A stretch of 54,258 nt of DNA, filler included, from Actinomycetota bacterium (GCA_009886115.1; 5 parts of 5 records of this genome joined end to end with filler, not necessarily neighbours in it), one strand, 5' to 3'. Numbered from the whole stretch's first letter, positions 12,819 to 54,258 are shown. Numbers and translations: made by a program. The notes: generated by a model from the letters alone, not told the origin.

Positions 12819-13109
12819 TCAGTCCTGGCGATGTAGGTCGAGGTTGAAGAACTCGAGCTGTCCCCCGGAGAGCGCGGCCATCTGCTCCGCGATCTTCGCA
12901 GTCGCGGGAAGGGCGTTGTTGCGCATGGCGTCCTCATAGCTGGGGAATTCGACGATCACCCAGTACTCGCCTGGCTTGTCGCGGTTCTCGCAGATGATGT
13001 CGCGCGTCACGGTGCGCTGACCTTCGGTGTCGCGGAGCCACTCTTCGTGAGCCGCCTCGAGGCCAGCGTAATCCGCCGTGGACATCTTGATGATCTGCAC
13101 AAAGCCCAT
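12819..13109 (-). CDS. Small hypothetical protein, probable dimeric alpha-beta barrel (ABM-like)
   Basis: MGFVQII...RDKPGEYWVIVEFPSYEDAMRNNALPAT...FFNLD. Confidence 0.7.
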   Translation of the reverse strand: MGFVQIIKMSTADYAGLEAAHEEWLRDTEGQRTVTRDIICENRDKPGEYWVIVEFPSYEDAMRNNALPATAKIAEQMAALSGGQLEFFNLDLHRQD

Positions 13110-13295
13110 CGAACCCCCAACCCCTCGGGTCATCGCTTGGTCACATTATGAACGAAGCGCCGACCCGTGTACACCCCCGAACTTGCCTGCCCCTCACACC
13201 CCGGTGGAACCCGCCCACCCGCGCCGAACGCACCAACCCCGCGACCCGTTCCGGACGCTGCGGACGCTGCGGCACCGTGAGCGTTCCACGTCGAG

Positions 13296-14801
13296 TCAGC
13301 GGAGCACGGTGGCCAGGGCGGCGTTGGCGGCGTGATGGCCGCACATGCCGTGGACGCCGGCACCGGGTGGGGCCGAGGCCGAGCACAGGAACAGGGCCGG
13401 GTCGGGGGTGCGATAGGAACGCAGGCCGAGCGTGGGGCGGAACACGAGCTGGAGGCCGGCATGCGAGCCGCCGGCGATGTCGCCGCCGACATAGTTCTCG
13501 TTGTGGTCCTCGAACCAGGCGGGATCGGCGACGTGGCGGGCGGCGACCACGTCACCGAACCCGGGGGCGAATCGTTCGATCTGGGCCTCGATCGCCGCCG
13601 TCACCGCGGCGGGGTCGCCCGAGAAGCCATGGGGCACATGGCAGTACGTCCACAGGACGTGCCGCCCGGCGGGAGCCCGGCTCGGATCGACGACGGTCGG
13701 CTGCGCCGCCAGCACGAAGGGGCGTTCGGCGCAGCGGCCGGCGGCCACCTCACGTTCGGCCAGGGCGACCTCGGCGATCGTGCCACCCAGGTGGAGCGTC
13801 CCGGCCCGGCGGGCGTCGGGATTCGTCCACGGCACCGGCTCGGTGAGCGCGTAGTCGACCTTGAAGGCGCCGGGCCCGTAGCGAAAACGCAGCAGGCGCC
13901 TGCGATACCGGGCCGGGAACCGGTCGCCACCGAGCGCAGCGAGCTGGCGAGGCGTCACATCCAGCAGCACGACCCGCGACGGCGGGAGCTCGCGCAGCGC
14001 ACCGACCCGGCGACCGACCTCGATGGTGCCGCCCAGCTCGATCAGGTCGGCCGCCAGGGCGTCGACCAACGCCTGGGAGCCGCCGCGCACGAACGGCCAG
14101 CCGGCGACGTGCGCCGACGCGGCCAGCATCACCCCGAACGACGACGTGAGCGGCCGCTCGAGGGGGAGGAAGGCATGCGCGGCGCATCCCGCGAACAGCG
14201 CGGCGGCCTCGTCGCCGTCGAAGCGCCGCGCGGTCGCCGTGGCCGGCAGCAGCGCCCGGGATCCGAAGCGGGCCATGGCGACCGGGTGCCGCGGTAGCCG
14301 CAGCACCGGGCCGAGCGCGTGCGGCGCGATGTGGGACCAGCCGTCGACGACCGGGGCGAAGAGGCGGCGCCACCTCCGACCGTCGTCACCCCCCGCCGAG
14401 TCGAGGCCGGCCACCGTGTCGTCGAGCGAGCGGTGCAGGAGCCCCGCCCGTCCCCCGTCGAGCGGATGGGCCAGCGGGATCTCGGGATGGACGAGCTCCA
14501 TGCCGTGCCGTACCAACGACTGCGACCGCGACGCGAAGAACGGTGACACCGCCGCGAGGGGGTGCACGGCCGAGCACACGTCGTGCCGGTATCCCGGAAG
14601 GGTCAGCTCGGCGGTGCGGGCTCCGCCGCCGACGGTCGCGGCCGCCTCGACGACGAGCACCGAGCGGCCGGCGGCAGCGAGGGTGACCGCGGCGGCGAGG
14701 CCGTTGGGCCCGGCACCCACCACGATCGCGTCGTACCCGGAGCCGCTGTTGAAGCTACCGCCCACGCCCACGCCCGTCCCTCGAGATCGCGACAAGGGCA
14801 C
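13296..14801 (-). CDS. Phytoene dehydrogenase-related FAD-dependent oxidoreductase
   Basis: DAIVVGAGPNGLAAA, GGGARTAELTLPG, HDVCSAVHP, LCSASAPPGAGVHGMCG; exact start uncertain. Confidence 0.9.
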   Translation of the reverse strand: MPLSRSRGTGVGVGGSFNSGSGYDAIVVGAGPNGLAAAVTLAAAGRSVLVVEAAATVGGGARTAELTLPGYRHDVCSAVHPLAAVSPFFASRSQSLVRHGMELVHPEIPLAHPLDGGRAGLLHRSLDDTVAGLDSAGGDDGRRWRRLFAPVVDGWSHIAPHALGPVLRLPRHPVAMARFGSRALLPATATARRFDGDEAAALFAGCAAHAFLPLERPLTSSFGVMLAASAHVAGWPFVRGGSQALVDALAADLIELGGTIEVGRRVGALRELPPSRVVLLDVTPRQLAALGGDRFPARYRRRLLRFRYGPGAFKVDYALTEPVPWTNPDARRAGTLHLGGTIAEVALAEREVAAGRCAERPFVLAAQPTVVDPSRAPAGRHVLWTYCHVPHGFSGDPAAVTAAIEAQIERFAPGFGDVVAARHVADPAWFEDHNENYVGGDIAGGSHAGLQLVFRPTLGLRSYRTPDPALFLCSASAPPGAGVHGMCGHHAANAALATVLR

Positions 14802-14802
14802 C

Positions 14803-15142
14803 TCAGCCGATCACGACGGTCGGTGGTCCGGCGAGGACGAAGGCGATGCCGGCCGGGTCGAGGAACGAGGCGACGTCGGGGTCGACGACCTCGCGGACCG
14901 ACGGGACGCCCAGCGACTCGATCCAGGCTTCGAGCGAGTGGAACCACTGCTGGGTCAGCCCGTCGTACTCGGCGCCGGGCAGATCGAGGGCGTGGTTCTG
15001 CTCGTAGCCCAACAGCGGGTCGCGCAGCTCGGCGATGTCCTGGAACAGGGGACCGTGGCGGTTGAGCCAGTGATCGTGGTACTCCTCCAGGCTCATCCCG
15101 GCCTTGCGGCGCAGGATGCACAGCATCGACATGCCGGCCTCG
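14803..15142 (-). CDS. EthD-family protein (5' end in gap)
   Basis: LRRKAGMSLEEYHDHWLNRHGPL, YEQNH, YDGLTQQWF. Confidence 0.8.
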
Positions 15143-15242
15143 NNNNNNNNNNNNNNNNNNNNNNNNNNNNNNNNNNNNNNNNNNNNTTAATTAATTAANN
15201 NNNNNNNNNNNNNNNNNNNNNNNNNNNNNNNNNNNNNNNNNN
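15143..15242. other. Artificial contig linker
   Basis: N-TTAATTAATTAA-N. Confidence 0.98.
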
Positions 15243-39721: not shown

Positions 39722-41152
39722 GTGACCACGGAACGCACCGCTACACTCGACGGGCTCGACACTCGCTGTGACCTCGCCGCCGCACGGGTTCAGGCGAGCG
39801 AGAAGCCCCGAGCCGAGGGTGCGCTGCTTGTGATCATCGAGACGTCCAACGATCCCTCGCCGGTCACCGACCGTCCGCTGCCGGGTGCCCGAACCGGAGG
39901 CTGGACGCTGGCGGGACGGTACCGCCTCGACGAGCCCCTTGGTGCTGGGGCGATGGGCGAAGTGTGGGGTGGCCGCGATCTGTGGCTGCACCGCACGGTC
40001 GCCGTGAAGATGTTGCGCGGCGACGCGGCCGATCACGTCTCGACGGCGCTCCGGTTCTCGCACGAAGCCCGGGCCATGGCTCGGCTCAACCATCCCAACG
40101 TCGTCACCGTCCACGACTTCGGCGAGCACGAGGGCGAGCCGTACCTGGTGATGGAACGCCTTCCCGGCCGCAACCTCTCCGACGACCTGGGGAGCACGCC
40201 GCTCGACGAGGCCACGGTGTGCACCGTCGTTCGCGACGTGCTGGCCGGGCTCGGGGCCGCCCACGAAGCCGGGCTCATCCATCGCGACGTGAAGCCGGGG
40301 AACATCCTCTTCGCAGCCAGCGGCGTGGCGAAGCTGGCCGACTTCGGGATCGCCAAGGGCGCCGGCCAGGACCTCACCCGACCTGGGGAGTTCGTGGGTA
40401 CCTGGCAGTACATCGCGCCCGAGCTCATCGCCGGCCAGCCGGCCACAGTCCAGAGCGACCTCTACGCCATCGGCGTCATCATGTACTTCGCTCTCTCGGC
40501 CAAGCGTCCCTTCGCCGGCGATTCCCTGATCGAACTCGCCCGATCGATCACCCAGGCCTCACCCGTCCCGTTGGCGACCTTGCGGCCCGACCTCGATCAG
40601 GCCCTGATCGCCATCGTCGAACGAGCGATGCACCCGTCGCTCGAGCAGCGTTTCGCCGACGCCGCGTCGATGATCGAGGCTCTCGAGGCCGTCGAGGGCC
40701 TCGGGGTCGTCCCGGGTGCCTCGCCAGTAGGCGCCGTCGAGAGCCACACCGACACCGATGCCGCCGTCGACACCGAGAGCCCGGACGAGACCGCAGTCAA
40801 CACCGAGGCGGTCGTCGATGCGGTGTACTCCGAGGAAGCGACCGCGGCAACGAAGAACCGGCTCATCGCCGGCATTGGCGCCTTCGTGCTGGCGATCGTG
40901 ATCACCGGGATCGCCACGGGAGGCGACGACGCCTTCACCGCGACCCGGGCCGACGACACGTTCGGGACCCGCACCACGATCGCGTCGCCACAGGCCGAAC
41001 TGGGCGCCGCGCTCGATCGTCTCGAAGAGGCCGTGGCCGCAGCCGTCACGACAGCGGGCCCCGGGACCGGGACCGGAACCGGAACCGGAACCGGAACCGG
41101 AACCGGAACCGGAACCGGAACCGGAACCGGAACCGGAACCGGGACCGGAACC
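39722..41152 (+). CDS. Hanks-type Ser/Thr protein kinase with TM segment (3' end in gap)
   Basis: LGAGAMGEV, VAVK, HRDVKPGN, DFGIA, YIAPE; start uncertain. Confidence 0.92.
41063..41152 (+). repeat. (GGAACC)n coding microsatellite (Gly-Thr repeat) at the contig break
   Basis: About 15 GGRACC units. Confidence 0.9.
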
Positions 41153-41252
41153 NNNNNNNNNNNNNNNNNNNNNNNNNNNNNNNNNNNNNNNNNNNNTTAA
41201 TTAATTAANNNNNNNNNNNNNNNNNNNNNNNNNNNNNNNNNNNNNNNNNNNN
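41153..41252. other. Artificial contig linker
   Basis: N-TTAATTAATTAA-N. Confidence 0.98.
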
Positions 41253-41669
41253 GTGACGAGCAGCCATCAGCCGGGTCGACCAATGCGTCGAACCATCATC
41301 AGGCCGGTTCGTCTGCGTGTCAGCAACCACCGCCGCGACCGTGCCCTCCGGCAACCACGACCTCCGGCCCCGACCCGGAGCGATCCGCCCCACACCCTCG
41401 ACACCCTCTTCGACAAACCGACGACGCCACGCCCTCACCGACGTATCCGTCGTGCCACACCGACGCGCGACCTCGTTCGTCGGCACCCCATCCCCAGCCC
41501 ACAACAACGCCTTCGCCTGGACCACCTGACGGTACGGCAACGACCCCGACCGGGCCATCACATCCAACGCAGCACGCTCCTCGACCGACATCGGCAACGG
41601 CGCAGCAGTCAGAACAGGCATAAGAACATCATACCAGACTACCACAGCTATTTCAACGACACACCACTA
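41253..41669 (-). mobile_element. IS630-family element, left end and transposase N-terminus (CDS from 41621)
   Basis: EERAAL...AKALL...VRAWRRRF...GRGR...THWSTRLMA; the element boundary falls at CTAG (TA target) 41667-41670. Confidence 0.88.
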
Positions 41670-41736
41670 GACACGCACGGAGCCCAGCAGGGGAATTCCG
41701 TGAACAACCCGCCAGGGAATTACGTGAACGCCGACA
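41670..41736. mobile_element. Probable IS21-family terminal end
   Basis: Tandem gggaatt(c/a)cgtgaac repeats ending in ...gccgaCA, like the multi-repeat TG...CA ends of IS21. Confidence 0.55.
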
Positions 41737-42029
41737 CCAAGGCGATGTGCCTCGAAGTCAAGAGCAGCAGTGGCGAGGGGTTTCACTTGTCGACTGGCGA
41801 GTGGCGTCTCGCTCAACGGCTCCATGACGCGGGAGAAGGTGACCGCTACGCGGTGCTTGTCGTGCGGCGTAGCAAGCGTCGTGGCCTGCCCGCAGGAATG
41901 GACCTCCTCGTTGACCCAATAGGTCTGGTGGAGACCGGCCGACTCCGTCAGGATGTCGACGGCTACCAGATCGCCTATCGAGCCGGCGCCAGCGGCCCGA
42001 GCACGGAGGCCAGCGATGGCCACGCCTGA
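41737..42029 (+). pseudogene. DUF3883/NOV C-terminal PD-(D/E)XK nuclease remnant, interrupted by IS
   Basis: CLEVKSSSGEGFHLSTGEWRLA...YAVLVV...DP. Confidence 0.72.
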
Positions 42030-44007
42030 AGTGACGCAACCGACCCCGGCACCAGTCCTCCTTGGTTGGGGGCTCACGCCACCCGAGCGCCTTGAGCGCG
42101 CGATCCGCGGCCGCAGGTTGTCGTCATCCTCGATGTACGACCTGGTGGTTGAGGTGGCTGCCGGTATCTCGAGCAGGAGGGGTACGGAGACGCTTGAAGA
42201 GATGCTCTCCTCGCTCCGTGAGCCTCTTCGAGGCCTACGTCGTAGCTACCGAAGTGGCCGGGTCCTGATCGACTACGAGAAGGGATCGGAGCTGGCCTAC
42301 CTGCTCGCCTATGTGCCTCCATACATAAGAATGGCCGAGCAAGTGATTGCGCGCTCGCTGGTTCTCGATTCGATTGGCCCGATCCTCGACGTTGGTCTCG
42401 TCGGCGCAGGCCCCGCCCCCGAGGCCGTAGCCCTCATCAACCTGCTGATCGACGCGAAGGCGCAGGTCGACCGGTTGCGGCTGCATCTGTTCGACATCGC
42501 CACGGACGAATGGCGGATCGTTCGTGAGGCGCTCCTCGACGTGGGCTGCCGATGTCGATGGGACGGGTCCATCGAGGTCCAGCATCATTCGCTCGACCTC
42601 AGAACACCGGCGACCTTCAACGCTCACCGGAGCATTCTGCAGTCACTCGATTTCGTGATGGTGCAGAACTGCCTGAACGAGGACATTGTGCACCGGCCAG
42701 CAGCTGTCGAGAACCTTCTCGACCTCCTGTCGGCGATGCGTCCAGGATCAGTGCTCGCGATTGCAGACCAGCACAACTACGTGTCGGTTCGCGACCGCAT
42801 CCGAATGCTGGCCGATCAGGTCATTGACGAGGTGGAGACGCTCGGGAGGTTCGACGCGGCCATCAGGGTGAGGGTGACCGACCCGCTACCTCCAGTGCTC
42901 ACGAAACACCTCCTCACTGGCGAGGACGGCCTGATCCCGCGCAAGAACCTCGAGCTCGGCGTCCTGGTACTCCGAGTTCCAGCGAGCGGACCGTCACGAC
43001 CGGTACCTGAACCAGACGCAGCGCAGGAACCGGACAGGAGCGCGGCCCCGAAGCGGCCGCCTGGGTCCACGGCGGGGGCACCGGCTCGAGCTCGGCGAGT
43101 TCCGACTCCCGCGCCGAGGCGACTCCATTCGCCCGAGCGAACATTGGCCGGAATTCGGGTCATGGCCGACGCGAGGGAGAGAGCAGCGCTCAAGGGCGAG
43201 CGCTGCGTCCTCGACGAATTACGTAGAGCACGAAAGGCCGTTGCGGGGGTTGTCACCCGAGCCGAGACGGGAGGAGTGTTTGTTGACATCGCTGGCGTGG
43301 AGGTATTCATCCCCGCCGACCGGCTCGAGCTGGACGGACCCAGGGGCTCGCTTCGCTCCTATGTCGGGCAACGGCTGGCCGTCTTGCTTGAGGATGTCGG
43401 TGCTCAGCACGCACGCGGAAACCGAAGGGCACTCCTAGCAAGGCGACGGCTGCAGCTGCTCGCCGGTGTCGAGGTCGGCGATCGGCTGACGGGTCACGTG
43501 CGAGTCGTGCAGGACGGCCACGTGATCCTGGACGTCGACGGATTGGAGGCCGTTGTTCCGGTTCGAGAGCTCTCGCACGACTGGGTCGATCATCCGAGCG
43601 ATCTCATCGCGATGGGTGATGAACATGAAGTCGAGGTGATCGAGGTCGACCGTGGCCAAGGTCGCGTGTTGGCCTCTCTGGCCAGGTGTACCCCGGACCT
43701 CATCGCTGACTTCGCGGAATCCCATGACCGGGGCCAGCTCGTCCTTGGTGAAGTATCCGGCCTCGAGGACAGGTGGGCCGACGTGCGTATCGGTGACCTG
43801 CCAGCGCGTATTCACATCTCGCAGATCGCCCACGGCTGGATCACTCATCCGTCAGCTGTCCTTCAGGATGGCCAGGAGGTGTGGGCGGCCTTCGTCGGGG
43901 TGCATCATGGCAAGCGGGAGCGCCACATCCGGCTCTCGCTCACGGAGGTCCATGCCGCCAGCCCGGTAGCGCCGGACTTCGCTGACCTCTGGGAGGAGGC
44001 ACGATGA
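42016..44007 (+). CDS. Class I SAM-methyltransferase-like domain fused to three RpsA-like S1 domains
   Basis: GGAGG RBS; AYLLAYVPPY, motif I LVGAGPAPE, HLFD, DFVMVQNCLNE, MRPGSVLAIAD; Pro-rich linker; S1 repeats GGVFVDIAGVEVFIP, VPVRELSHDWVDHPSD...VEVIEVD, IHISQIAHGWITHPS. Confidence 0.82.
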   Translation: MATPEVTQPTPAPVLLGWGLTPPERLERAIRGRRLSSSSMYDLVVEVAAGISSRRGTETLEEMLSSLREPLRGLRRSYRSGRVLIDYEKGSELAYLLAYVPPYIRMAEQVIARSLVLDSIGPILDVGLVGAGPAPEAVALINLLIDAKAQVDRLRLHLFDIATDEWRIVREALLDVGCRCRWDGSIEVQHHSLDLRTPATFNAHRSILQSLDFVMVQNCLNEDIVHRPAAVENLLDLLSAMRPGSVLAIADQHNYVSVRDRIRMLADQVIDEVETLGRFDAAIRVRVTDPLPPVLTKHLLTGEDGLIPRKNLELGVLVLRVPASGPSRPVPEPDAAQEPDRSAAPKRPPGSTAGAPARARRVPTPAPRRLHSPERTLAGIRVMADARERAALKGERCVLDELRRARKAVAGVVTRAETGGVFVDIAGVEVFIPADRLELDGPRGSLRSYVGQRLAVLLEDVGAQHARGNRRALLARRRLQLLAGVEVGDRLTGHVRVVQDGHVILDVDGLEAVVPVRELSHDWVDHPSDLIAMGDEHEVEVIEVDRGQGRVLASLARCTPDLIADFAESHDRGQLVLGEVSGLEDRWADVRIGDLPARIHISQIAHGWITHPSAVLQDGQEVWAAFVGVHHGKRERHIRLSLTEVHAASPVAPDFADLWEEAR

Positions 44008-44048
44008 ACTGCGATGAGTACCAATCGCCACAGGGGGACCAGTCGTGA
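44004..44048 (+). CDS. 14-codon linker ORF (MNCDEYQSPQGDQS)
   Basis: GGAGGAGG RBS; ATGA overlap with the upstream stop and GTGA overlap with the alkB start. Confidence 0.45.
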   Translation: MNCDEYQSPQGDQS

Positions 44049-44674
44049 CCAGCGGCCAGGCCGGTCTCTTCGACGAGCCGCTGGCGGGCCCCGGCCTCGA
44101 TGTCTCCGTCGTGCGATCGGCATTCAGCTCCGAAGAGGCGAATCGAGCGTTCGAGCTACTGAGAGCCGAGGTCCCCTGGCAACAGGACGAGATCGTGATC
44201 TTCGGCAAGAAGACACCGTTGCCGAGGTTGACGGCGTGGTTCGGCGACGGAGGGTTCGAGTACACGTACTCGGGAATCACCATGCAGCCACATGCATGGA
44301 CGCCCATCCTGACGATAGTGAGGACGCGGGCTCAGGAGATCGCACAGGCCAGCTTCAACACCGTGCTGCTCAACCTCTACCGCGATGGTAGGGACGGCGT
44401 GGCGTGGCATGCGGACGATGAAGAGGATCTCGGTCCCGCCCCGGTGATCGCCTCCGTCAGCTTCGGCGCCACAAGGCGCTTCCAGTTTCGTCGCCGCGAC
44501 GATGCGGCCGTGAAGCGAGAGCTCGAGCTGTTCGACGGCGATGTCGTGATCATGCGAGGGCAGACCCAGGACCTTTGGGTCCACCAGGTGCCGAAGACAG
44601 CGAAGCCCGTTGGCGAGCGGATCAACCTCACGTTCCGAACGATCGTGCCCCACGCGGCTGCCGCAAGGGTGTGA
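44045..44674 (+). CDS. alkB: AlkB-family Fe(II)/2OG dioxygenase (ALKBH2/3-like)
   Basis: PRLTAWFGD, YTYSG, LLNLYRDGRDGVAWHADDE, WVHQVPK, RINLTFR. Confidence 0.93.
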   Translation: MTSGQAGLFDEPLAGPGLDVSVVRSAFSSEEANRAFELLRAEVPWQQDEIVIFGKKTPLPRLTAWFGDGGFEYTYSGITMQPHAWTPILTIVRTRAQEIAQASFNTVLLNLYRDGRDGVAWHADDEEDLGPAPVIASVSFGATRRFQFRRRDDAAVKRELELFDGDVVIMRGQTQDLWVHQVPKTAKPVGERINLTFRTIVPHAAAARV

Positions 44675-44893
44675 GCCGCAGCTTTGCCTCAGATCGGCGA
44701 AACGAACCCAATCTGTGCTGTGTCCGGTGGCCGCTCCGGTCAAACCCACGTCAAACGCACCGAGCCGGACGGGCTCGGATTCGGCGGACCTGGCGTTCCT
44801 TCAGCGCCCCCTGCACCGTCCTGACCAGCACGTTCGCGCTCTCGCCATCACCCACCCGCACAGCCCCCTCGGGCTCATAAGAGTTGCTTTCGT

Positions 44894-45289
44894 CTACAGC
44901 GCGATCGCGCGCAGCCCGGTGGTCGTGACGGCGTGCATCCACGGGCCCTCTGGTTCGGCGACGATGATCTGCTCGACGTGGGGCCAATGCTGTTCGAGGA
45001 TGGCGAGGCTGTCGAGGGTCGATTGGCTGCGCCGGCCGGTGAGCACGAACCCGCGCACGCGGTGTTCCATCCAGAGCCGCTTCTCGACGGGCCGGTAGCG
45101 GATCCGTTGGTCTCGGGTGATCACGACGAGACCGAGTGATGCGACGACGGGGAGCCATTCGTCGTCGAGTGCGCCCCTCGGGATCTCGGGGAGCTCGACA
45201 TGGCCGGGGTAGACGACGTCGTCGTGGATCTCGCGGAGCGCTTTGCCGAGGGCCAGGTCGTTCTCGTCGACGAAGAACCTGGCGGCCAC
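44894..45289 (-). CDS. PIN-like toxin (VapC45/Rv2019-like)
   Basis: RFFVDENDL, DDEWL, VITRDQRIRYRPVE. Confidence 0.85.
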   Translation of the reverse strand: MAARFFVDENDLALGKALREIHDDVVYPGHVELPEIPRGALDDEWLPVVASLGLVVITRDQRIRYRPVEKRLWMEHRVRGFVLTGRRSQSTLDSLAILEQHWPHVEQIIVAEPEGPWMHAVTTTGLRAIAL

Positions 45290-45295
45290 TGCCGG

Positions 45296-45990
45296 TTACG
45301 CGACCAGCGACCGGAGCTGTTCCTCGTACGCCACGGCCGAGCGGACAAGTTCTGGTGCGATCTCGTAGCCGTGCGCGATCTGATCGACGGTTTCGCCGGC
45401 GTCGAAGAGCTCCCAGAGCCGCTCGGTGGCGACACCGTCTACGGTCGGGCGTCCGAAGCGTACGAGAGGATCAATCACCACGGCGGAGGCTGGCCCGGCG
45501 GGGTGGAGTCGTCGGACGTCGCCATCGCCGGCGGGGTCGAACTCGACCTTGCGGAAGAACCGGTTGGCGACGTCGGTGAGCATGACCTGTTGGCCGGAGC
45601 GGATGACGATGGCGATCGCGGGCGGGAGATCGTTGCGTTCTTGGACTTCCAAGACCAGTTCTCGACCCATCACGTACGGCCGCGCGGTTGCGAGCGGGTA
45701 GGGCGTCGCGAACTCGCGGCGCAGCTCGTCAATCACCGGGCGCAGCCGCTGCAGCGGCACACCGCAGCGGCGGTACTCGCGCAGGTAGCCGAGTTCGACG
45801 AACTCGCCCCAGGTGACGATGTCGTCACCGGTTGATGCTTCGCGAATCACCGGCGCGTATCGGACGCCGCGTTGCTCGTAGCCGTCGAGCCAGGCGCGCG
45901 TGCGATCCGGCCGCAGCCCGAGCAGGCCTGCAGCCTCGGCGACCCCGTACACGGGGCGCTGAAGGATCGACACAGCGGGCGCAGTCACGA
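45296..45990 (-). CDS. DUF433 antitoxin with N-terminal HTH (VapB45/Rv2018-like)
   Basis: YGVAEAAGLL, VVIDPLVRFGRPTVDGVATE, AGETVDQIAHGY...AVAYE; start approximate. Confidence 0.87.
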
Positions 45991-46089
45991 CACCATCATG
46001 CCGTGCCGGCAAGCCCGCCGCCGACATCTTCGAGCCGCAAGCCGAGTGAACAGCGCCGACACCGAGCCCCGAATCCGCATCGTGTCCAG

Positions 46090-46400
46090 CGCGTGCCCGT
46101 GCTGACGCCGATGGCGACGGCAGCCACTGTCGTCGGCCGACTCCCGGCTGCGATGGCCGAGGTGCTCGCGGCGCTCGGGATCGACCCCCGATTCGTCGCG
46201 GCCGAGACGGCCGAGACGGCCGAGATGCGGCCGGCGATGCTGGCCAAGACGGCGAGTCGCCAGGTGTTGGGTGTCATGAACGAGTTCGCGTTCATGGCCG
46301 AGCACACGATCAGCACCGGCCGCTCGGACCCGACCGATCTGGTCGGGCTGTCGGTGTGGCTCGCTAACACGATCGTCGGGCCGATCGGCAGAGACGACGG
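46090..46400 (+). pseudogene. DUF6933-like fragment
   Basis: PVLTPMATAATVVGRLP...LAKTASRQVLGVMNEFAF; no intact N-terminus. Confidence 0.5.
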
Positions 46401-46500
46401 TTCCGCGCCATTCGGCGCCCCTTCGGAACCGGGTGGCCGCAGCCCTCGACGGCTGACCGCGTGCCCTCGCCGACCTCACCGGTGTATGAGTCTTGATCGA

Positions 46501-46833
46501 ATGAGTGGGCATCACAAGTGGTCCGATCTGCGCGACAAGATGATGGAGCGGCCAGGCGCGCGCGAGGCCGCCGAGAGGGCACGGGTCGGCTACGACGAGG
46601 AGGTTCGTCTGTACGAACTCCGCCATGCCGAAGCGCTGAGCCAGGTCGAGGTCGCCGGGCGTCTGGAGATCACCCAGAGTGCCGTGTCGAAGCTCGAACA
46701 CGCGGAGGATGTGCGGGTCTCGACGCTGCGGGACTACCTCGAAGCACTCGGCGCGCGGCTCGAGCTCGTCGCGGTGTTCGACGACGAGGGGCGGCGCGTG
46801 CCCGTGCACCTCGGTAAGGAACCAGCGGCGTGA
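46501..46833 (+). CDS. XRE-family HTH protein (HigA-like antitoxin, no toxin seen)
   Basis: LYELRHAEALSQVEVAGRLEITQSAVSKLE...VSTLRDYLEALGARLEL. Confidence 0.87.
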   Translation: MSGHHKWSDLRDKMMERPGAREAAERARVGYDEEVRLYELRHAEALSQVEVAGRLEITQSAVSKLEHAEDVRVSTLRDYLEALGARLELVAVFDDEGRRVPVHLGKEPAA

Positions 46834-47264
46834 ACACACGGCCGTGCACAACCTTGACGGACCGTATCGAACTCGGTCTCACCACGGGAGCCACAGCCCG
46901 CCAGTCCAACGAACACCTGCTCGACCCCCCGACCCCCGACAAATCCGGACCGAGCGGTGCCCTGGAAGGTTGTCGATCGCGTGTGATCGCGTCCGCAATG
47001 TGCCGTTCGAAAGCGCGAGCGCCGAAACTCGGTGGCCAGCCCGCTTCGGCGTGACACGGTGCGGCCTCCCAGTGCAGCGCCCGGTAGTCACGGAGCCGCG
47101 TAGGCGCCAGACGCGTCCAGGAGCCGGCAATTGCGAGCACAGTCGCCAGGGACGCGCCGCCCATATCGCGAGCGCCGTAACCGCGGACGCCGACGTCAAC
47201 AGGTCGCCCGGGTTCGGCCCGAGTCCGGGTGCTCGGACATCGCGGCGGGAGAGAACGCTGGGCG

Positions 47265-47660
47265 TCAGATGGTGACGAGGCGGACCGATGCGTCGAGCGT
47301 CTGGAGCAGGTGTCGGAGGTCGGTGGGGTCGGAGGTGACGAGGGCGGTCGGACCGGTTTGCGATCGAGCGGCGGCGATCAGCGCGACGGAAGCGTCGACG
47401 ATGTCGGCCGTGCCGGCGCGTCCGCACAACAAGCCGGTCGCGCGCGCCAGGGATCCCTCGAGCGGGATCTCGTCGCAGTGGACGAGCGCTCGTGCAAGGA
47501 GTGCTTGTCGGCTTCCGTCGCGCCATGCCTGTGCGACGACACCGGCGGGCACCGACACCGGCGCGAAGTTGTCGGCGGCGTTGCGGAGGATCGCCCAGAC
47601 AGAGCGGTCGTTGCGATCCAGCGCGATCAGCGCGCCGGTGTCGAGGACGAGTGCGGTCAT
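47265..47660 (-). CDS. PIN-domain (VapC-like) toxin
   Basis: LVLDTGALIA, VPAGVVAQAWR, DIVDASV, VTSDPTDL. Confidence 0.87.
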   Translation of the reverse strand: MTALVLDTGALIALDRNDRSVWAILRNAADNFAPVSVPAGVVAQAWRDGSRQALLARALVHCDEIPLEGSLARATGLLCGRAGTADIVDASVALIAAARSQTGPTALVTSDPTDLRHLLQTLDASVRLVTI

Positions 47661-47881
47661 CCGTCGACGAGGGCGCGTGCGGCTGCGAGCTCTTCGTCGC
47701 TGAACGCGCCATGCTCGCGTTCCCATGCGGCCACGACGTCGCGGAGGCCGCGGTTGGCGAGATGGCGGCGGGCGGCGTCGGCGAGCCAAGAGGACACGTT
47801 CTGCTCGTCGGCCTCGGCGGCTTCGCGGACGGCGACGGCGAGCTCTGATTCGATCGAGACGGTGAGTCGTTCGACGGTCAT
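47657..47881 (-). CDS. Ribbon-helix-helix antitoxin
   Basis: MTVERLTVSIESELAVAVREAA...VSSWLADAA...WEREHGAFSDEEL; ATGA overlap with the toxin. Confidence 0.85.
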   Translation of the reverse strand: MTVERLTVSIESELAVAVREAAEADEQNVSSWLADAARRHLANRGLRDVVAAWEREHGAFSDEELAAARALVDG

Positions 47882-48126
47882 GTCGCGATCATACTTCGTC
47901 ATACTCGGCGGCGCCACGCTCATCGCCCGAGTCTCAGCGTTGCAGCCAACACGCGGTTTGGGCCCCCGCCACCAAGGAAACAGCAGGTCAGGGCCTATCT
48001 TTCGGGATGGGTCCTGATTCGCGTCTACCGGGAAGATCTACCGATCCGGTAGACGTCTCGAGACCGTTTCCGCTGCCGAGGGGGTCCTGACCAGGGGCTT
48101 GGCGGTTTGGCGGGGCTGTGGTGCGT

Positions 48127-48450
48127 CTACCGGTTGATGAGGTTGGCGAAGCGTTGGGCGGCGTTGGCGTTCATGCCGGGGAGGATGTGTTGGTAGGGGT
48201 GCATCGTGAATGCCGGGTGGGCGTGACTGTCTCGACGCCGTGTCCGTCGTCGTGCTGGCGGGTTCGCCAATGCTCGAGGATCGTCTCGGTTGTCGGGTCG
48301 AGTTCGACGCAACGTCGGCTGGTGCGGGTTTTGGTGGCGAACTCGGCGGATCGTCCGGCGAGCGCTTGTCGTGATCGACTGATCGACAGGCGGTGGGTTT
48401 CAGGGTTCCAGTCGCCCCAGCGCAGGCCGGCGACCTCGATGCGGTGTCGA
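48127..48450 (-). pseudogene. Tyrosine integrase relic with internal deletion
   Basis: RIEVAGLRWGDW...TKTRTSRRCVELD...LEHWR, then frame-shifted HAHPAFTMHPYQHILPGM. Confidence 0.8.
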
Positions 48451-48596
48451 CGGGGCAACTCTCCGGCTCTGGGCATGCCCACACTCAATCGTCGTCCGGA
48501 CAACGTCCGGACAGTCCTGTCACTGCTTTGTCACTGCGACGTGATCCCACCGGGTCCTACGGGTACATACGAGATCGGCCCAGAGGGCCCATAAAC

Positions 48597-48696
48597 NNNN
48601 NNNNNNNNNNNNNNNNNNNNNNNNNNNNNNNNNNNNNNNNTTAATTAATTAANNNNNNNNNNNNNNNNNNNNNNNNNNNNNNNNNNNNNNNNNNNN
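48597..48696. other. Artificial contig linker
   Basis: N-TTAATTAATTAA-N. Confidence 0.98.
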
Positions 48697-48821
48697 CGGC
48701 CGCCCGAGCCAAGGCGCTCGTCGAGTTCGACCAGCGGCGCCAGATCGACCTGAGCCTGGCCACCTACGACCGGCTGCTCGCCCGGCGCGACCTCACCGCA
48801 CCCAAGCGCGACGGGATCGTC

Positions 48822-49562
48822 GTGCGCCCGGCTGGTCCTGCCGATGCTCCGGCAATCGCCGCGCTGCACGCAGCGCGGATCGGCGAAGGTTTCCTCGCCT
48901 CGCTCGGTGAGCCCTTCCTCAGGCGTCTGTACCGCCGGATCTCGCTGCACCCCGGATCGTGGGTGATGGTCGCCGAGCTCGACGGGACGGTCGTGGGCAT
49001 GGCTTCGGGCACCTTGGCCACACGGCGTCTCTACCGTTCGTTCATCCTCCGCGACGGGTTCGCCGCCGCCTGGACCGCTGCCCCGCGCCTGGCGCGATCG
49101 TGGCGGCTGGTGCTCGAGACGCTGCGCTATCCGGGGGCGGGGGAGCCGTCCCCGGGCGACGGATCGGTCCATGACGCGACGAGTGCGGGTACCGAAACCG
49201 GCCACGCCAGGCTGAGTCACGCCGGGGCGGTTCCGGAGTTGCCGCACGCCGAGATCCTCTCGGTCGCGGTCTCCGACGCCGCCGGCGGACGGGGCGTCGG
49301 CACCGCCGTGGTCGGCGCCGCGCTCGACGAGTTCCGACGGCGTCGTGTGGAAGCCGTGCGGGTGGTGACCGTCGTCGGCAACGACAGCGCCGTTCGCATG
49401 TACGAGCGGTGCGGGTTCGTCAAGCACTCCCGTACCGAGGTGCACGCGGGCATCGCCCAGGAGGTGCTCGTCTGGCGGGAGGCGGCACCGGCGTCGCCCG
49501 CCGCGTCCGCACCGTCCGCACCGTCCGCACCGGCAGCGCCGTCCGAGGACCTCGCCCGATGA
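48822..49562 (+). CDS. GNAT acetyltransferase (polysaccharide-locus type)
   Basis: GFLASLGEPFLRRLY, EILSVAVSDAAGGRGVG, NDSAVRMYERCGF; the start may lie upstream. Confidence 0.85.
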   Translation: MRPAGPADAPAIAALHAARIGEGFLASLGEPFLRRLYRRISLHPGSWVMVAELDGTVVGMASGTLATRRLYRSFILRDGFAAAWTAAPRLARSWRLVLETLRYPGAGEPSPGDGSVHDATSAGTETGHARLSHAGAVPELPHAEILSVAVSDAAGGRGVGTAVVGAALDEFRRRRVEAVRVVTVVGNDSAVRMYERCGFVKHSRTEVHAGIAQEVLVWREAAPASPAASAPSAPSAPAAPSEDLAR

Positions 49563-50497
49563 CCTACGTCGCGTTCGTCGCCTTCCTGGTCGCGGTGATC
49601 GCCACCCCGATTGCCGGGCGCGTGGCCCAGCGGGTGGGGATCGTCGACCATCCAGGTCCGCTCAAGGTTCATCAGAAGCCCGTGCCGTACCTCGGTGGCA
49701 TCGCTGTCTTCGCGGGGCTCGCGGTCTCCATGGGCGAGACCGACATCGCGCTCCTCGGTCCGCCGCTCGCCGCACTCGTGCTCGGCGTCGTCGACGATGC
49801 GACCGACCTCCCGCCCAAGTTGCGTCTGGCCGCCGAGGGGCTCATCGGCATCGGTGTGGCCCTCGCCGTTCCCCACCACGGCGTGCTCCCGTTCCTCGCC
49901 GCCGTGGGCGCCACGGTCGTGCTCATCAACGCCGTCAACCTGATCGACGGTCTCGACGGTCTCTCGTCGGGGGTCGCCCTCGCCGGAGCCGTCGGGTTCT
50001 GCTGGGTGCTCGAAGGCGAGGGACGGGCGTTGGCGCTGGGCCTCGCCGGGGCCCTCGTGGGGTTCCTCGTGTGGAACCGGCCTCCCGCTCGGATCTACCT
50101 GGGCGACGGTGGTGCCTATCTGCTGGGCACGACCCTGGCGGTGATGCTCGCCTCGAGCTGGACCCCCGATGGCGCCATCGGCCGGCCCGTCGCGTCGCTG
50201 CTGCTCGTGGCCGTGCCGGTGGTCGACACCACGGTGGCCATCGTGCGGCGCGTCCGCACGAGCGCCCCGTTGTTCGAAGGCGATCGGGGCCATGTGTACG
50301 ACCAGCTCGTCGACCGGGGCCGACGGGCACCGGTGGCGGTGCTCTGGTGCGTCGGTGCCGCAGCCGTCCTGGCGACGGTGGGATCGCTGGCGACCCGGCT
50401 CGACACGCCTGGCGCACTGGTCGTCACCGGACTGGCCGTGGTGGCGGTGCTCGCGGTCGTGGTGGTCGCCCGGTTCACGAGCCCGCCCGGGGGGTGA
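49559..50497 (+). CDS. WecA/MraY-family polyprenyl-phosphate HexNAc-1-phosphate transferase
   Basis: KVHQKPVPYLGG, LGVVDD, NAVNLIDGLDG, NRPPARIYLGDGG, GDRGH; ATGA overlap with GNAT. Confidence 0.92.
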   Translation: MTYVAFVAFLVAVIATPIAGRVAQRVGIVDHPGPLKVHQKPVPYLGGIAVFAGLAVSMGETDIALLGPPLAALVLGVVDDATDLPPKLRLAAEGLIGIGVALAVPHHGVLPFLAAVGATVVLINAVNLIDGLDGLSSGVALAGAVGFCWVLEGEGRALALGLAGALVGFLVWNRPPARIYLGDGGAYLLGTTLAVMLASSWTPDGAIGRPVASLLLVAVPVVDTTVAIVRRVRTSAPLFEGDRGHVYDQLVDRGRRAPVAVLWCVGAAAVLATVGSLATRLDTPGALVVTGLAVVAVLAVVVVARFTSPPGG

Positions 50498-50500
50498 GCC

Positions 50501-51700
50501 GTGCGTTGCTGGCAGCTCGACATCCTCGGCATCGGGGTCGATCTCGACGTCCGGGCCGCACCGGCGTTGCTCGATGTGCTCGACGACACGCTGGCCGACC
50601 TCCTCGACCGCCGGGCCGGGTCCGACGGCCTGCCGAGCGTCCGGCGGAGGCTGGTTCTCGACCTCGACGCGTCGACGCTCACCGACGGCGACAAGGTCGT
50701 GGCGACCGGGTTCGCGCCCGAGGATGCCCAGGAGTGGCTCTGGTGGCACCTGAACCGCATCGGAGCCACCCACCCTTCGCTCACCACGGTGCACGCCGGA
50801 GTGGTGGCGACGGACCGGGGGGCGGTGGTGATCCCCGGCTCGGCCGGCGCCGGGAAGTCGACCCTCACGGCCGCGCTCGTGGGTGCTGGATGGCGCTATC
50901 TCTCTGACGAGCTGGCCGCGCTGAGCCGAGGAGCAGCGCTCGTGCACGCCTACCGGCGGCCGCTGAGCCTGCACCCCACGTCGGCGCGACTGCTCCGCCT
51001 CGACGGGCCGGGCGCCAGCGAGGGGCACGACCGTCCCGAGTTCGTCGCGTCGCGCCGTCTCGTCCGACCCGGGGCCGACACCACGACGCACCGGGCGGCG
51101 CCACGGTCGGCGGTACCGGTCATGGTCGTGTTCCCCCGGTTCGGCGGATCGGAACGGGGGACGGGGCGCGACGTCGAGCCTCTCGGCCCGGCTGACACGT
51201 TGCTCGGGTTGATCGCCAACGGCTCGAACCTGGCGATCAACGGCCAACGAGCGTTCTCGACCCTGGCGGCCCTGGCGGGACGGGCACCCGGGTTCGTCGT
51301 CGACACCACCGATCTCCCTGGCGCGGTCGAGGCCGTCACCGAGCTGGCCGCTCGGGCCCAGGCTCCGGGCGGCCCCGAACTGATGGCACGGCCCTCGGCC
51401 TCGGTCGTCGAGGTCAGGCGGGGCCCCCTGCGATGCTCGGAGGTCCAGGCCCTGGCCTGGCCGCAGGACCGGGGCGACCTCGTGCTCTTCGACGCCGCCA
51501 CCGGCCTGACGCACCGCCTCAACGGACCCGCTGCCGAGGTGTGGCTCCGCTGCGACGGGAGCCGATCGGTCGGCCAGATCGCAGGCGAGCTGGGCGAGCA
51601 CTTTCACGGTGCCGACGTCGCGCTCCAGGCCGGGTCGGTGATCGATCGGCTGGTCGAGCTGGGTGCCGTCGAGCTCGACCACGTGCACCGGTCGGGATGA
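50501..51700 (+). CDS. HPr-kinase-related P-loop kinase fused to a C-terminal PqqD/RRE domain
   Basis: VHAGVV...GSAGAGKSTL...WRYLSDELA; C-terminal DLVLFDAATGLTHRLNGPAAEVWLRCDGSRSVGQIAGEL. Confidence 0.87.
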   Translation: MRCWQLDILGIGVDLDVRAAPALLDVLDDTLADLLDRRAGSDGLPSVRRRLVLDLDASTLTDGDKVVATGFAPEDAQEWLWWHLNRIGATHPSLTTVHAGVVATDRGAVVIPGSAGAGKSTLTAALVGAGWRYLSDELAALSRGAALVHAYRRPLSLHPTSARLLRLDGPGASEGHDRPEFVASRRLVRPGADTTTHRAAPRSAVPVMVVFPRFGGSERGTGRDVEPLGPADTLLGLIANGSNLAINGQRAFSTLAALAGRAPGFVVDTTDLPGAVEAVTELAARAQAPGGPELMARPSASVVEVRRGPLRCSEVQALAWPQDRGDLVLFDAATGLTHRLNGPAAEVWLRCDGSRSVGQIAGELGEHFHGADVALQAGSVIDRLVELGAVELDHVHRSG

Positions 51701-51981
51701 CCACGTTACGTAGCTGAACGCCGGCCCCCTGGGGTTTCCCCCCTCGGCCCGACTTCGCAACCAACTGGATTTGTCCGCCGGGATCGGGCAAAATCATTGA
51801 CACAGCGTGGTCGATCACGTCGCGCAGTGGTCGATTCGGCCGGCTGTGCGTGGGTTGTTCCACAGAGTGGGACGAGCGACGGCGACTGACCACAGCATCG
51901 TCACGGGAGTCGATACGCTCCCCTCGACGGGGGTCGCCAGCGAACGGTCCGATGGGTATCGGACACTTGGGAGAGCAGCGA

Positions 51982-54258
51982 ATGCGGGCATTGCGGACGT
52001 GGATTTCCCGACGGCGCGGGGTCGCAGCGCTCGTCGCTGTCGGTCTCGTCGCCAGCTCCGCCGCCGTCGCCATCCTGGCGCTGCCCGCCTCGGCCGCCCC
52101 CCCGACGGTGGTCGACGACACCTACGCCGTGGCCACGGGCGGCACCCTCGTCGTCAACGCGGCCGAGGGCGTGCTGGCCAACGACACCAACCCCGATTCG
52201 GGCGAGGGCGCACTCGTCGCCATCTGGGCGGCCCTGCCGATCACCACGGCCAACGGGGGCAAGGTCACCGCAGCTGGTGCGAACGGGTCGTTCACCTACG
52301 ACGGCACCGGCGTCGCCACCGCGACCGACTCGTTCGACTACGACGCCGACGACGGCCCCGGCGGAGACCCGCCGGTCACCGGCACGGTCACCATCGTGTT
52401 CGGCACCAACACCAAGCCCACGCTCTCGGCGGTGGCTGACCAGACCTGGGCCGTCGGCGGCGCTGTCTCGGCCACGCTGAACGTGACCGTGAGCGACCCC
52501 GACACGGCGCTCGGCTCGGTCACCGTGAGCGGGTCAGCGGTACCGATCGGGAACTTCACGGTCGGCCCTGTCACCGGTAGCGGGTCCACCCGAACCGTCA
52601 CGCTCACTCGCACTCCTGGTGCCAGCACCGGCCCCACCACCATCACGCTCGTCGCCGACGACCGCACCGGCCCCGGCCCCACAACCCAGGGCCCCCCCGA
52701 GACCTTCATCGTCACCGCCGGCCCCGGCAGCCCCCCGGTCATCACCGGCCTCCCCGCCACCAAGACTGTCTTCGAAGATCCCACGCAATCGCAGGTGAAG
52801 ACCGACTTCACGGTGACCGACGTCCCTGATCTGAACGCCCCAGCGTCGACTGTAGGCGTCTCGGCGACATCCTCGAACGTCGCGCTCGTGCCTGCGCTCG
52901 TCCCGACGATCCCCACGGTCCCTACAGGCACTGTTGGGTCGGCGTTCCCGAGCCCAAACGACGATGCCAACAGCACCGCTTTCGGAACGACCACGATCAC
53001 CGTACGGGCGACCGACCAGTCGGGAGCATTCACCGAGGACACATTTGACCTCACGGTCGCGGCGGTGAACGACCCTCCCGTCGCTCGTCCAGATGGTGTC
53101 AGTCCCGTTATCAACGTGCTGGAGGGAACTCCCGTCGATATTGACGTCCTACTCAACGACGATGACCTCGACGACGCGCCGAATCCACCTCCGCAATCCG
53201 GGTTACGCCTTGCAACCGGGAACGTCGGACTGAGCGTCACCCTGCAACCCGACAACGGCGCAGCAGTTGCGATTCTCCCGGCCGGGTCACCGGTCGGTAC
53301 TCGACCGATCATCCGTTACACCCCATCGGGAGAGTTCAGCGGAAGCGACACCTTCGAGTACAGGATTTGCGACATTGGGTTCCCGCTCCCGCGTGCCTGC
53401 GCCGTCGATATTCCAGTGACCGTGAATGTCATTGCCGTCGACGATCGTCCTATCGCGGTGCCTGATATGTATCCGGTTCCGAACCCCACGGGGTCGTTAA
53501 CCGTCCTGCCTACGAGCGGGCTGATCCAGAACGACACCGATATCGACGGCCCGCTGCCGCTGACTGTCCATCCGTTCCCGCTGCCAACTACGCAGCCACT
53601 CCCGGGGCAGCCCTACATCCTTGTGAGCCCCAGGGGCACGCTGACGCTCAGGACCGACGGATCGTTCACGTTCGCGCCCTCAGGTCTCGGTGGTGTGGCG
53701 AGCTTCGCCTACACGGCGTGCGGGCCCACCGGGCCACCCTTTGGCCCAACGGCTTGTAGCGCGTCTTCGACCGTGACATTCGATGTCGCCAATACCCCTC
53801 CTGTCGCCGCGGCCGACTCGTACACCACGCTCGAGGACACCGTTCTCGATGTCAACGGGTTCGATGGCTCGCCTCCCCTGTTGGTGGCAAACGACACTGA
53901 CGCCAACGGAGACGTCTTGTCGGCCAGCAGTTTCCCTGTCAACCCGACGATCTTCCCCCAGGGGACCCTGGCGGTGGCCCCGACCGGTCAGCTCACGTTC
54001 ACTCCGGCGTTGAACCAGACCGGGCTAGTGACATTCTTCTACACGGCGTTCGATGGGGTGGCCGCTTCACCGCGGGCCACCGTCGAGATCACCGTCTTTC
54101 CGGTGAACGATCCGCCGGTGGGTATCGCCGACACGGCGCTCAACCTGCTGGTGGGGCAGGCGTCGGCGATCGCCGTGCTGGCCAACGACTCCGATCCCGA
54201 CGGCGTCGCCGACACGCGCCACGTGGCTTCCTTCTCGCAGTCGGTCGAGGGCGGCACG
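51982..54258 (+). CDS. Large secreted protein with cadherin/Big_9 (tandem-95) Ig-like repeats (runs off the window)
   Basis: Manual translation: MRALRTWISRRRGVAALVAVG...PASA signal, then VDDTY...GVLANDT, VNDPPVA, VLLNDDD, FSGSDTFEY, NTPPVAAADSYTTLEDT. Not in the ORF track (no stop). Confidence 0.88.
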   Translation, partial: MRALRTWISRRRGVAALVAVGLVASSAAVAILALPASAAPPTVVDDTYAVATGGTLVVNAAEGVLANDTNPDSGEGALVAIWAALPITTANGGKVTAAGANGSFTYDGTGVATATDSFDYDADDGPGGDPPVTGTVTIVFGTNTKPTLSAVADQTWAVGGAVSATLNVTVSDPDTALGSVTVSGSAVPIGNFTVGPVTGSGSTRTVTLTRTPGASTGPTTITLVADDRTGPGPTTQGPPETFIVTAGPGSPPVITGLPATKTVFEDPTQSQVKTDFTVTDVPDLNAPASTVGVSATSSNVALVPALVPTIPTVPTGTVGSAFPSPNDDANSTAFGTTTITVRATDQSGAFTEDTFDLTVAAVNDPPVARPDGVSPVINVLEGTPVDIDVLLNDDDLDDAPNPPPQSGLRLATGNVGLSVTLQPDNGAAVAILPAGSPVGTRPIIRYTPSGEFSGSDTFEYRICDIGFPLPRACAVDIPVTVNVIAVDDRPIAVPDMYPVPNPTGSLTVLPTSGLIQNDTDIDGPLPLTVHPFPLPTTQPLPGQPYILVSPRGTLTLRTDGSFTFAPSGLGGVASFAYTACGPTGPPFGPTACSASSTVTFDVANTPPVAAADSYTTLEDTVLDVNGFDGSPPLLVANDTDANGDVLSASSFPVNPTIFPQGTLAVAPTGQLTFTPALNQTGLVTFFYTAFDGVAASPRATVEITVFPVNDPPVGIADTALNLLVGQASAIAVLANDSDPDGVADTRHVASFSQSVEGGT

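Follow-up and report, generated by a model that had tools for sequence, protein, structure and literature searches.

A recurrent bacterial gene pair encoding a class I methyltransferase-fold protein and an ALKBH2/3-type AlkB dioxygenase, with a possible writer/eraser role

A 54,258-nucleotide stretch of DNA, filler included, from Actinomycetota bacterium (GCA_009886115.1), hereafter the window, contains two co-directional genes on its plus strand that we propose belong together: one encodes a 663-residue protein with a methyltransferase-like domain, a Pro/Ala/Arg-rich linker and three S1 domains (42016-44007), and the other a 209-residue AlkB dioxygenase with a GTG start (44045-44674). The best-supported interpretation is that the real unit at this locus is a two-gene cassette, in which a protein with the fold of class I S-adenosylmethionine (SAM) methyltransferases, here fused to S1 domains, is accompanied by a dedicated AlkB of the ALKBH2/3 type. 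An earlier reading made from the sequence alone (the sequence-only reading) had proposed a coupled three-gene system of DUF3883 nuclease, methyltransferase-S1 fusion and AlkB demethylase. All parts of the cassette come from known superfamilies, and the logic of a writer paired with an eraser is known from DarTG; a full-text search of the literature found no description of a methyltransferase-AlkB gene pair, in agreement with the sequence-only reading, in which the architecture was not recognised from any described system.

Recurrence of the pair in distant bacteria supports a functional link between the two genes. A scan of species-representative genomes with the methyltransferase domain yielded ten loci from Actinomycetota, Cyanobacteriota, Bacteroidota, Pseudomonadota, Myxococcota, Nitrospirota and Nitrospinota, and an AlkB gene (PF13532) is adjacent and co-directional in nine of the ten (Gordonia, Nostoc, Mucilaginibacter, Cyclobacteriaceae, two Flavobacteriaceae, Methylophilaceae, Myxococcales and Nitrospirales). 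In seven genome loci the AlkB gene immediately precedes the methyltransferase gene on its strand, and in two, as in the window, it immediately follows: Gordonia and the methyltransferase-S1 form of Myxococcales. Eight cyanobacterial plasmid records also contain the domain, each with AlkB directly adjacent; one of these is pSYSA of Synechocystis PCC 6803, where alkB is SGL_RS01085 and RefSeq names its partner (SGL_RS01090) 'hypothetical protein'. With the window included, AlkB is the neighbour in 18 of the 19 loci found through the methyltransferase, as one of two adjacent, co-directional genes, and the loci with AlkB are dispersed through a family tree of 162 sequences. The genes overlap by 4 nucleotides or 1 nucleotide, or are separated by a spacer of 3-37 nucleotides, in most loci. 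Overlapping junctions had been described for the window; the start of the methyltransferase gene does overlap the preceding stop codon by 14 nucleotides (42016/42029), and the junction between methyltransferase-S1 and AlkB is a 37-nucleotide spacer with a GGGGGA ribosome-binding site. When all open reading frames (ORFs) within 5 kb were compared with one another across 15 loci, the methyltransferase and AlkB genes were the only ones in common, and no third conserved gene was found. Two further plasmids, found through AlkB, encode a distant member of the methyltransferase family just upstream of AlkB (hmmsearch 1.7e-11 and 9.4e-10); loci found in this way are biased to having AlkB and are counted apart from the 19.

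Dependency between the two genes appears to be asymmetric. Among the loci seen, intact methyltransferase genes always occur with AlkB, and the methyltransferase of the tenth genome locus (L010), the sole copy without AlkB, lacks its N-terminal half, including motif I. AlkB is found alone in six of the ten plasmid loci sampled from the AlkB side. Plasmids of Synechocystis PCC 7338 and 7339 keep AlkB beside an internally deleted methyltransferase gene (L019 3119-3479 and L020 3053-3413, respectively), of which profile positions ~1-57 and ~231-290 remain and the catalytic core is deleted, and the rest of a pSYSA-like neighbourhood, AlkB included, is retained. Sequence identities in two comparisons indicate that the methyltransferase diverges much faster than AlkB: the window and Gordonia (L001) share 54% identity in the methyltransferase and 71% in AlkB, and the corresponding values for P0005, a protein considered below, and Gordonia are 53% and 86%.

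The neighbourhoods of the cassette are unrelated between loci, and its GC content at third codon positions departs from that of neighbouring genes in most of them (0.71-0.81 versus 0.84-0.91 in the window). Several of these neighbourhoods contain genes of mobile or conflict-related types: the window cassette is flanked by the stump of a Tiamat gene, an IS630 fragment and a PIN_10/DUF433 pair; that of Gordonia has a GmrSD/HEC-05 gene as its neighbour; on pSYSA, cas1/cas2 precede the cassette by 4.8 kb and share its strand; that of Picosynechococcus adjoins DUF1156/DUF499, PIN and HicB genes; and that of Nostoc plasmid pNLP4 adjoins a type I restriction-modification system.

The first gene of the window cassette is an open frame from the ATG at 42016, as had been read before, with its stop at 44007; the start is backed by the aligned N-termini of P0002 and the Gordonia protein, and the product matches P0003 and P0004 over its full length with 48-51% identity. 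Its translation contains all three motifs on which a methyltransferase-like N-terminal domain had been postulated (AYLLAYVPPY, GAGPAPE and QNCLNE). For residues 1-345 neither Pfam nor NCBIfam gives a match, also with thresholds relaxed (Pfam E<=10, NCBIfam E<=1), and a profile of the domain has no meaningful match among PDB sequences. Structural modelling assigns the domain (residues ~37-322; 42124-42981, plus strand) clearly to the class I SAM-methyltransferase fold. AlphaFold2 gave a predicted local distance difference test score (pLDDT) of 79.9 and a predicted template-modelling score (pTM) of 0.80 with an alignment of 11 sequences, and 87.4 and 0.85 with an alignment of 95. The model consists of a four-helix N-terminal cap and a seven-strand Rossmann-like core of the order β1-αA-β2-αB-β3-αC-β4-αD-β5-αE-β6-β7, as in class I methyltransferases, and every Foldseek match listed from the PDB has the class I methyltransferase fold (probability 1.00, E 5e-8 to 2e-6), chain 7 of 8csp/8csr having the best TMq (0.45). 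Rsm22 (PF09243), which had been put forward for comparison together with other class I enzymes, was rejected as the family of the domain, having no Pfam match even at E<=10.

The predicted cofactor-binding residues are conserved in almost all family representatives. Placed on β1 and β2 by the secondary structure of the AlphaFold2 model, motif I comprises G130, G132, P133 and E136, and D160 stands at the end of β2; G130 is conserved in 138 of 152 representatives, G132 in 150 of 152, E136 in 152 of 152 and D160 in 153 of 153. Outside this predicted cofactor site, W166 and Q217 occur in all 153, and the equally conserved Y95, Y99, W166 and Q217-N218-C219-L220-N221-E222, the last of these after β4, probably form the substrate site.

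The family to which the domain belongs is large and unnamed, having no Pfam, NCBIfam or PADLOC model and the label hypothetical in RefSeq. A word-indexed search recovered five close relatives of the N-terminal domain only; a full profile search recovered no fewer than 1,128 clusters (50% identity) at E<=1e-3, of which 310 at <=1e-30, and most members are stand-alone proteins of ~300 residues. The 47 longer relatives include 17 with a C-terminal HSP70-like ATPase (P0078, P0091, P0094 and 14 others), six with TPR (P0053 and five others), two with TBP-TOTE (P0108 and P0137), and one each with S1, HTH_40 and pentapeptide repeats. A plasmid search for the HSP70- and TBP-fused relatives gave no full-length match. 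These fusions recall the TOTE conflict systems, which combine TPR, OB, TBP and effector components (PMC12458937, in the portion available), in that relatives of the domain are fused to TPR, OB (S1) and TBP-TOTE; the window protein differs in having the OB (S1) component only, with no TPR or TBP domain. An ESM-Atlas look-up pointed to PF11312 (Methyltransf_34), carried by 14-39% of the members of the Atlas neighbours, and PF11312 recurs as the nearest Pfam family, with colinear matches, all sub-threshold, in 17 of 86 stand-alone relatives. One table in the accessible part of PMC5307852 links PF11312 to the yeast 25S rRNA uracil-N3 methyltransferase (EC 2.1.1.312, Bmt6-type), which methylates a ring nitrogen on the base-pairing face of RNA. 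The similarity serves as a lead to the substrate and not as a family assignment; no member reaches the curated cut-off.

The three S1 domains of the window protein (residues ~403-649; 43222-43962, plus strand), RNA-binding modules of the OB fold, are as previously described: Pfam S1 (PF00575) matches three stretches with a score of 82.8 bits (E 2.3e-23) against a cut-off of 22, and phmmer aligns the region to residues 86-308 of bS1 (1.8e-28). The NCBIfam models of ribosomal protein S1 match residues 403-648, every one below its cut-off; since these equivalog models fall far below, the protein is not rpsA. Most relatives of the methyltransferase domain are free of S1, and in the 162-sequence family tree the proteins fused to S1 share a single clade with the actinobacterial forms that lack it, from which it follows that S1 is an addition specific to this lineage rather than a core part of the system, as had been assumed.

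The AlkB of the window matches PF13532 (2OG-FeII_Oxy_2) with 126.8 bits (1.6e-36) against a cut-off of 31.2, and its best relatives of solved structure are human ALKBH3 (5e-40) and ALKBH2 (8e-37), confirming the ALKBH2/3 type assigned earlier. H122, D124, H180, R192 and R198, ligands of iron and 2-oxoglutarate, are invariant between it and eight partner AlkBs, and it is 41-71% identical to the partner AlkBs of the nine AlkB-linked genome loci (L001-L009). By similarity to ALKBH2/3, according to the definition of van den Born et al. 2009, it is a member of group 1B. It thus resembles bacterial group 1B AlkB, ALKBH2 and ALKBH3 as an ordinary-looking member with a full set of catalytic residues, and differs in having a conserved methyltransferase-fold neighbour, of which the available portion of the 2009 survey makes no mention, the word 'methyltransferase' occurring 0 times in it (PMC2790896). 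The same portion reports that bacterial alkB genes are generally not beside alkylation-repair genes and have no informative neighbours, and that the only group 1B AlkB tested repaired both methyl and etheno lesions and was active in all assays. In PADLOC the window AlkB matches the 2-oxoglutarate (2OG) half of CARF_2OG, a CRISPR ancillary protein, at 2.3e-49; it shares this half with CARF_2OG, and differs from it in that there is no CARF domain in the window.

We propose, at roughly even weight for and against, that the cassette is a mobile writer/eraser module with a toxin-antitoxin-like or conflict role. The methyltransferase would methylate bases at their base-pairing face, in single-stranded RNA or possibly in single-stranded DNA; candidate marks are 1-methyladenine (m1A), 3-methylcytosine (m3C) and 3-methyluracil (m3U), which belong to the lesion class removed by AlkB enzymes. 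The cognate AlkB would erase these marks, limiting or resetting the damage, and the S1 domains may steer the writer to RNA in the actinobacterial lineage. Such a cassette would probably act as an addiction or conflict module, toxin-antitoxin-like and possibly anti-phage, rather than in housekeeping repair. This role is favoured because of the asymmetric dependency, the patchy occurrence of the cassette with its foreign composition and its location on plasmids, the fast evolution of the putative writer and the conflict-type fusions of its family. The logic would be that of DarT/DarG, a toxin-antitoxin and anti-phage system with demonstrated toxicity and defence, in which ADP-ribosylation of nucleic-acid bases is reversed by a macrodomain protein. 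Both are pairs of adjacent genes, for a writer and an eraser in DarTG and for a putative writer and eraser here, and both are mobile and patchily distributed, but the window pair, known here from its sequence, would use methylation reversed by an iron/2-oxoglutarate dioxygenase, and its protein families are unrelated to DarT and DarG.

A broader version of the proposal, which we put forward tentatively and regard as doubtful, is that the family of at least 1,128 clusters consists of nucleic-acid-methylating toxins or effectors that put m1A, m3C or m3U lesions on RNA or single-stranded DNA, each with a dedicated AlkB of the ALKBH2/3 type as its enzymatic antitoxin, in parallel to DarTG but by methylation. 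Since such an eraser depends on iron, oxygen and 2-oxoglutarate, the module could also tie the fate of the cell to its metabolic state or to takeover by a phage. Bacterial AlkB has so far been treated as a stand-alone repair enzyme; if the toxin interpretation is correct, many bacterial 'DNA-repair' AlkB genes would be immunity genes against a neighbouring enzyme, and the mobility of some AlkB genes would be explained. Toxic methyl marks written by one enzyme and erased by another would be new chemistry for toxin-antitoxin and defence biology, and a natural bacterial case of enzymatically reversible base methylation of RNA or single-stranded DNA. Even if the role is in repair, a conserved partner of AlkB has been identified that can be tested in Synechocystis PCC 6803, which carries the pair on pSYSA.

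A number of observations weigh against the proposed writer/eraser module. SAM binding by the N-terminal domain is predicted from its fold and motifs. TM-scores in Foldseek reach at most 0.57, with matches that span small-molecule, protein and rRNA enzymes; because the top matches include many methyltransferases of small molecules or natural products, the substrate cannot be taken to be nucleic acid. None of the 86 stand-alone relatives reaches the PF11312 cut-off (best 23.3 bits versus 26), and the window protein has no PF11312 match. The phage collection searched holds no homologue of the methyltransferase domain. The search for known defence systems that had been recommended found no matches in PADLOC-DB v2, and no model, for the methyltransferase-S1 protein and two stand-alone relatives, AlkB matching half of CARF_2OG as described above. 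P0005, a protein of 529 residues, was considered as a 'Rosetta-stone' fusion of the two partners and rejected: its methyltransferase domain is cut short by ~25 residues at the C-terminal end, and ~50 unrelated residues lead from there into a complete AlkB, the one 86% identical to that of Gordonia. It is probably the product of a frameshift or read-through and counts as adjacency alone. The partner AlkBs are ~45-53% identical to one another and equally so to solo AlkBs, so that AlkB looks generic. Most chromosomal neighbourhoods look like those of housekeeping genes, such as carB/greA in Nitrospirales and, in Flavobacteriaceae, a TonB receptor or an Fe-S protein of succinate-dehydrogenase type. 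The survey of neighbouring genes that had been suggested found AlkB beside the methyltransferase as anticipated, but PADLOC matches within 5 kb in only two of nine scannable genome loci (L001 and L004), plus one BrnT toxin. In Mucilaginibacter, the only locus with another alkylation-repair gene, a methylpurine-DNA glycosylase (L003 10922-11524; Pur_DNA_glyco 1.9e-60) lies directly downstream of the pair after a spacer of 9 nucleotides, which fits a role in repair.

The glycosylase, the housekeeping surroundings and the absence of PADLOC matches from seven of the nine scannable genome loci are what would be expected of a repair accessory, that is, a non-toxic methyltransferase-fold partner that helps a normal repair AlkB, for example by binding RNA or single-stranded DNA (in the window protein through S1) and bringing AlkB to damaged substrates, or by sensing methyl damage. 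Such a partner would also suit an AlkB of the repair-type ALKBH2/3 or group 1B class (PMC2790896, in part) and the finding that solo AlkBs are as similar to the window AlkB as the partner AlkBs are. We nevertheless consider it unlikely, as the cofactor loop, the β2 aspartate and the polar residues are kept in about 150 of 153 representatives, which argues for catalysis over scaffolding, and a patchy distribution with atypical composition and plasmid location, a fast-diverging methyltransferase beside a stable AlkB, and loss of the methyltransferase with retention of AlkB, never the reverse for intact copies, are all at odds with it. A lower probability still attaches to a small-molecule methyltransferase that yields a reactive methylating agent or product, from which AlkB protects the nucleic acids of the producer. 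SN2 methylating agents make m1A and m3C lesions that are repaired by AlkB, and many of the best structural matches are enzymes of small-molecule or natural-product metabolism that have an N-terminal helical cap (NNMT, OxaG, the citrinin CMeT domain, AtmM/RebM, SgvM and GtmA), a resemblance echoed by a weak NNMT_PNMT_TEMT match in one family member; the Foldseek scores are, however, flat across methyltransferase classes, no biosynthetic genes are conserved nearby, where only two genes are common to the loci, and the fusions of the family to S1, TBP-TOTE and HTH_40 point to nucleic acid. Similarly improbable in our view is a two-step RNA modification in the manner of eukaryotic ALKBH8 (RRM, AlkB and a Trm9-type methyltransferase), in which the methyltransferase would methylate a specific tRNA or rRNA nucleoside and AlkB would hydroxylate the product, both enzymes then being writers of a single modification. 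The window pair has the same trio of RNA-binding module, AlkB and class I methyltransferase, its S1 domains are present, and the nearest sequence family of its methyltransferase is one of rRNA methyltransferases. ALKBH8 enzymes, according to the part of PMC4051686 available, are tRNA hydroxylases that act on 5-methoxycarbonylmethyluridine (mcm5U), the two enzyme activities of ALKBH8 building one tRNA modification, whereas the window pair consists of separate genes for a methyltransferase of no known family and an AlkB closest to ALKBH3 and ALKBH2; it is bacterial group 2A that ALKBH8 resembles (PMC2790896, in part). Moreover, S1 is missing from most family members, and a sporadic, plasmid-borne, compositionally foreign and repeatedly deleted gene is unexpected for a housekeeping modification enzyme.

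Least probable of all, and given hardly any weight here, is the three-gene system, with the DUF3883 nuclease, methyltransferase-S1 and AlkB as one operon unit. What speaks for it is that all three are co-directional, that the stop codon of the upstream piece (41727-42029, plus strand) overlaps the start of the methyltransferase gene at 42016 by 14 nucleotides, and that Tiamat genes often neighbour DNA methyltransferases, as stated in the available text of a preprint (10.64898/2026.09.30.754977). The piece itself is the 3' remnant of a gene for a Tiamat (TmtA)-like protein, containing the end of the NOV_C/DUF3883 PD-(D/E)xK domain. Pfam NOV_C matches it at E 0.011 (16.3 bits, below the cut-off of 22.1), and it matches the C-terminus of the PADLOC TmtA model at 4e-6. 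A search for longer relatives found 38 homologues, 19 of them 1,789-1,940 residues long, and the best, P0154 (1,891 residues), covers positions 19-1778 of the 1782 in the PADLOC TmtA profile (5.2e-96). Searched with tblastn against the whole window, P0154 aligns over residues 1806-1890 only, at 41727-41981, with 87% identity. The same portion of the preprint describes Tiamat as acting alone against phage, one protein that unites an Hsp90-like ATPase, DUF3684 and, at its C-terminus, a DUF3883/NOV_C nuclease; AlkB is mentioned 0 times. The window piece, for all its similarity to the end of the complete TmtA-like protein P0154, retains about the last 85 residues alone of a gene of ~1,890 residues and does not combine ATPase, DUF3684 and DUF3883/NOV_C in one protein; with its ATPase and DUF3684 parts missing from the window, it is a dead remnant that lies outside the cassette. 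The Tiamat gene is interrupted between about 41657 and 41727, next to the IS630 element, and neither other Tiamat pieces nor a second IS630 copy were found in the window. DUF3883/Tiamat matches are absent from all ten related genome loci, and in Gordonia, the closest relative with context, the place of the Tiamat stump is taken by a GmrSD-type endonuclease (L001 7592-9391; PADLOC HEC-05, 1.8e-194) encoded 55 nucleotides upstream of the methyltransferase gene. The DUF3883 nuclease, claimed as a member by the sequence-only reading, is thus not part of the system, and the three-gene version is essentially excluded.

The physical context of the cassette is limited by the make-up of the window, which consists of five draft contigs (1-7939, 8040-15142, 15243-41152, 41253-48596 and 48697-54258) joined artificially by N44-TTAATTAATTAA-N44 linkers, six-frame stop spacers, at 7940-8039, 15143-15242, 41153-41252 and 48597-48696. 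Gene order across the linkers is consequently meaningless, and valid context is confined to the contig of 7,344 bp at 41253-48596, whose GC content of 0.662 compares with 0.683-0.702 in the other four. An island with insertion sequences, toxin-antitoxin pairs and an integrase relic had been described around the operon; this contig does hold an IS630 fragment and a PIN_10 plus HTH_66/DUF433 pair, much of the rest of the island lies on unlinked contigs, and an integrase relic was not found by Pfam among the 16 start-codon ORFs of >=60 residues on the contig, shorter stop-to-stop fragments being unscanned. Scans of the contig with Rfam and for tRNA genes gave no match.

Upstream of the Tiamat remnant, the N-terminal 130 residues of an IS630-family transposase (41253-41645, minus strand; NCBIfam transpos_IS630 1.1e-12, Pfam HTH_32/HTH_29) run off the start of the contig, and a promoter-like site lies by this fragment on the minus strand at 41656-41628. 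Downstream of AlkB and convergent with it are a PIN_10 gene (44894-45289, minus strand; Pfam 1.4e-15) and an HTH_66/DUF433 gene (45296-46027, minus strand; Pfam HTH_66 7.2e-8, DUF433 3.8e-7), which by their domains are a toxin-antitoxin-like pair, part of the context and outside the module. A DUF433 gene is also located directly upstream of AlkB on a Planktothrix plasmid (L012 4818-5102). The next ORF (45832-46833, plus strand) has Pfam matches to a partial DUF6933 at residues 95-184 and to a C-terminal XRE-type HTH at residues 259-314; since it overlaps at its 5' end with the DUF433 gene, which is on the opposite strand, it may represent two short genes or a relic. In the remaining ~1.7 kb of the contig (46880-48596), Pfam, Rfam and tRNA scans all came back empty, and GC content by codon position gives no clear signal. 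The preceding contig breaks inside a GGAACC/GGGACC hexanucleotide repeat (41060-41152), which encodes the (Gly-Thr)n C-terminal tail of a Ser/Thr protein kinase (39722-41150).

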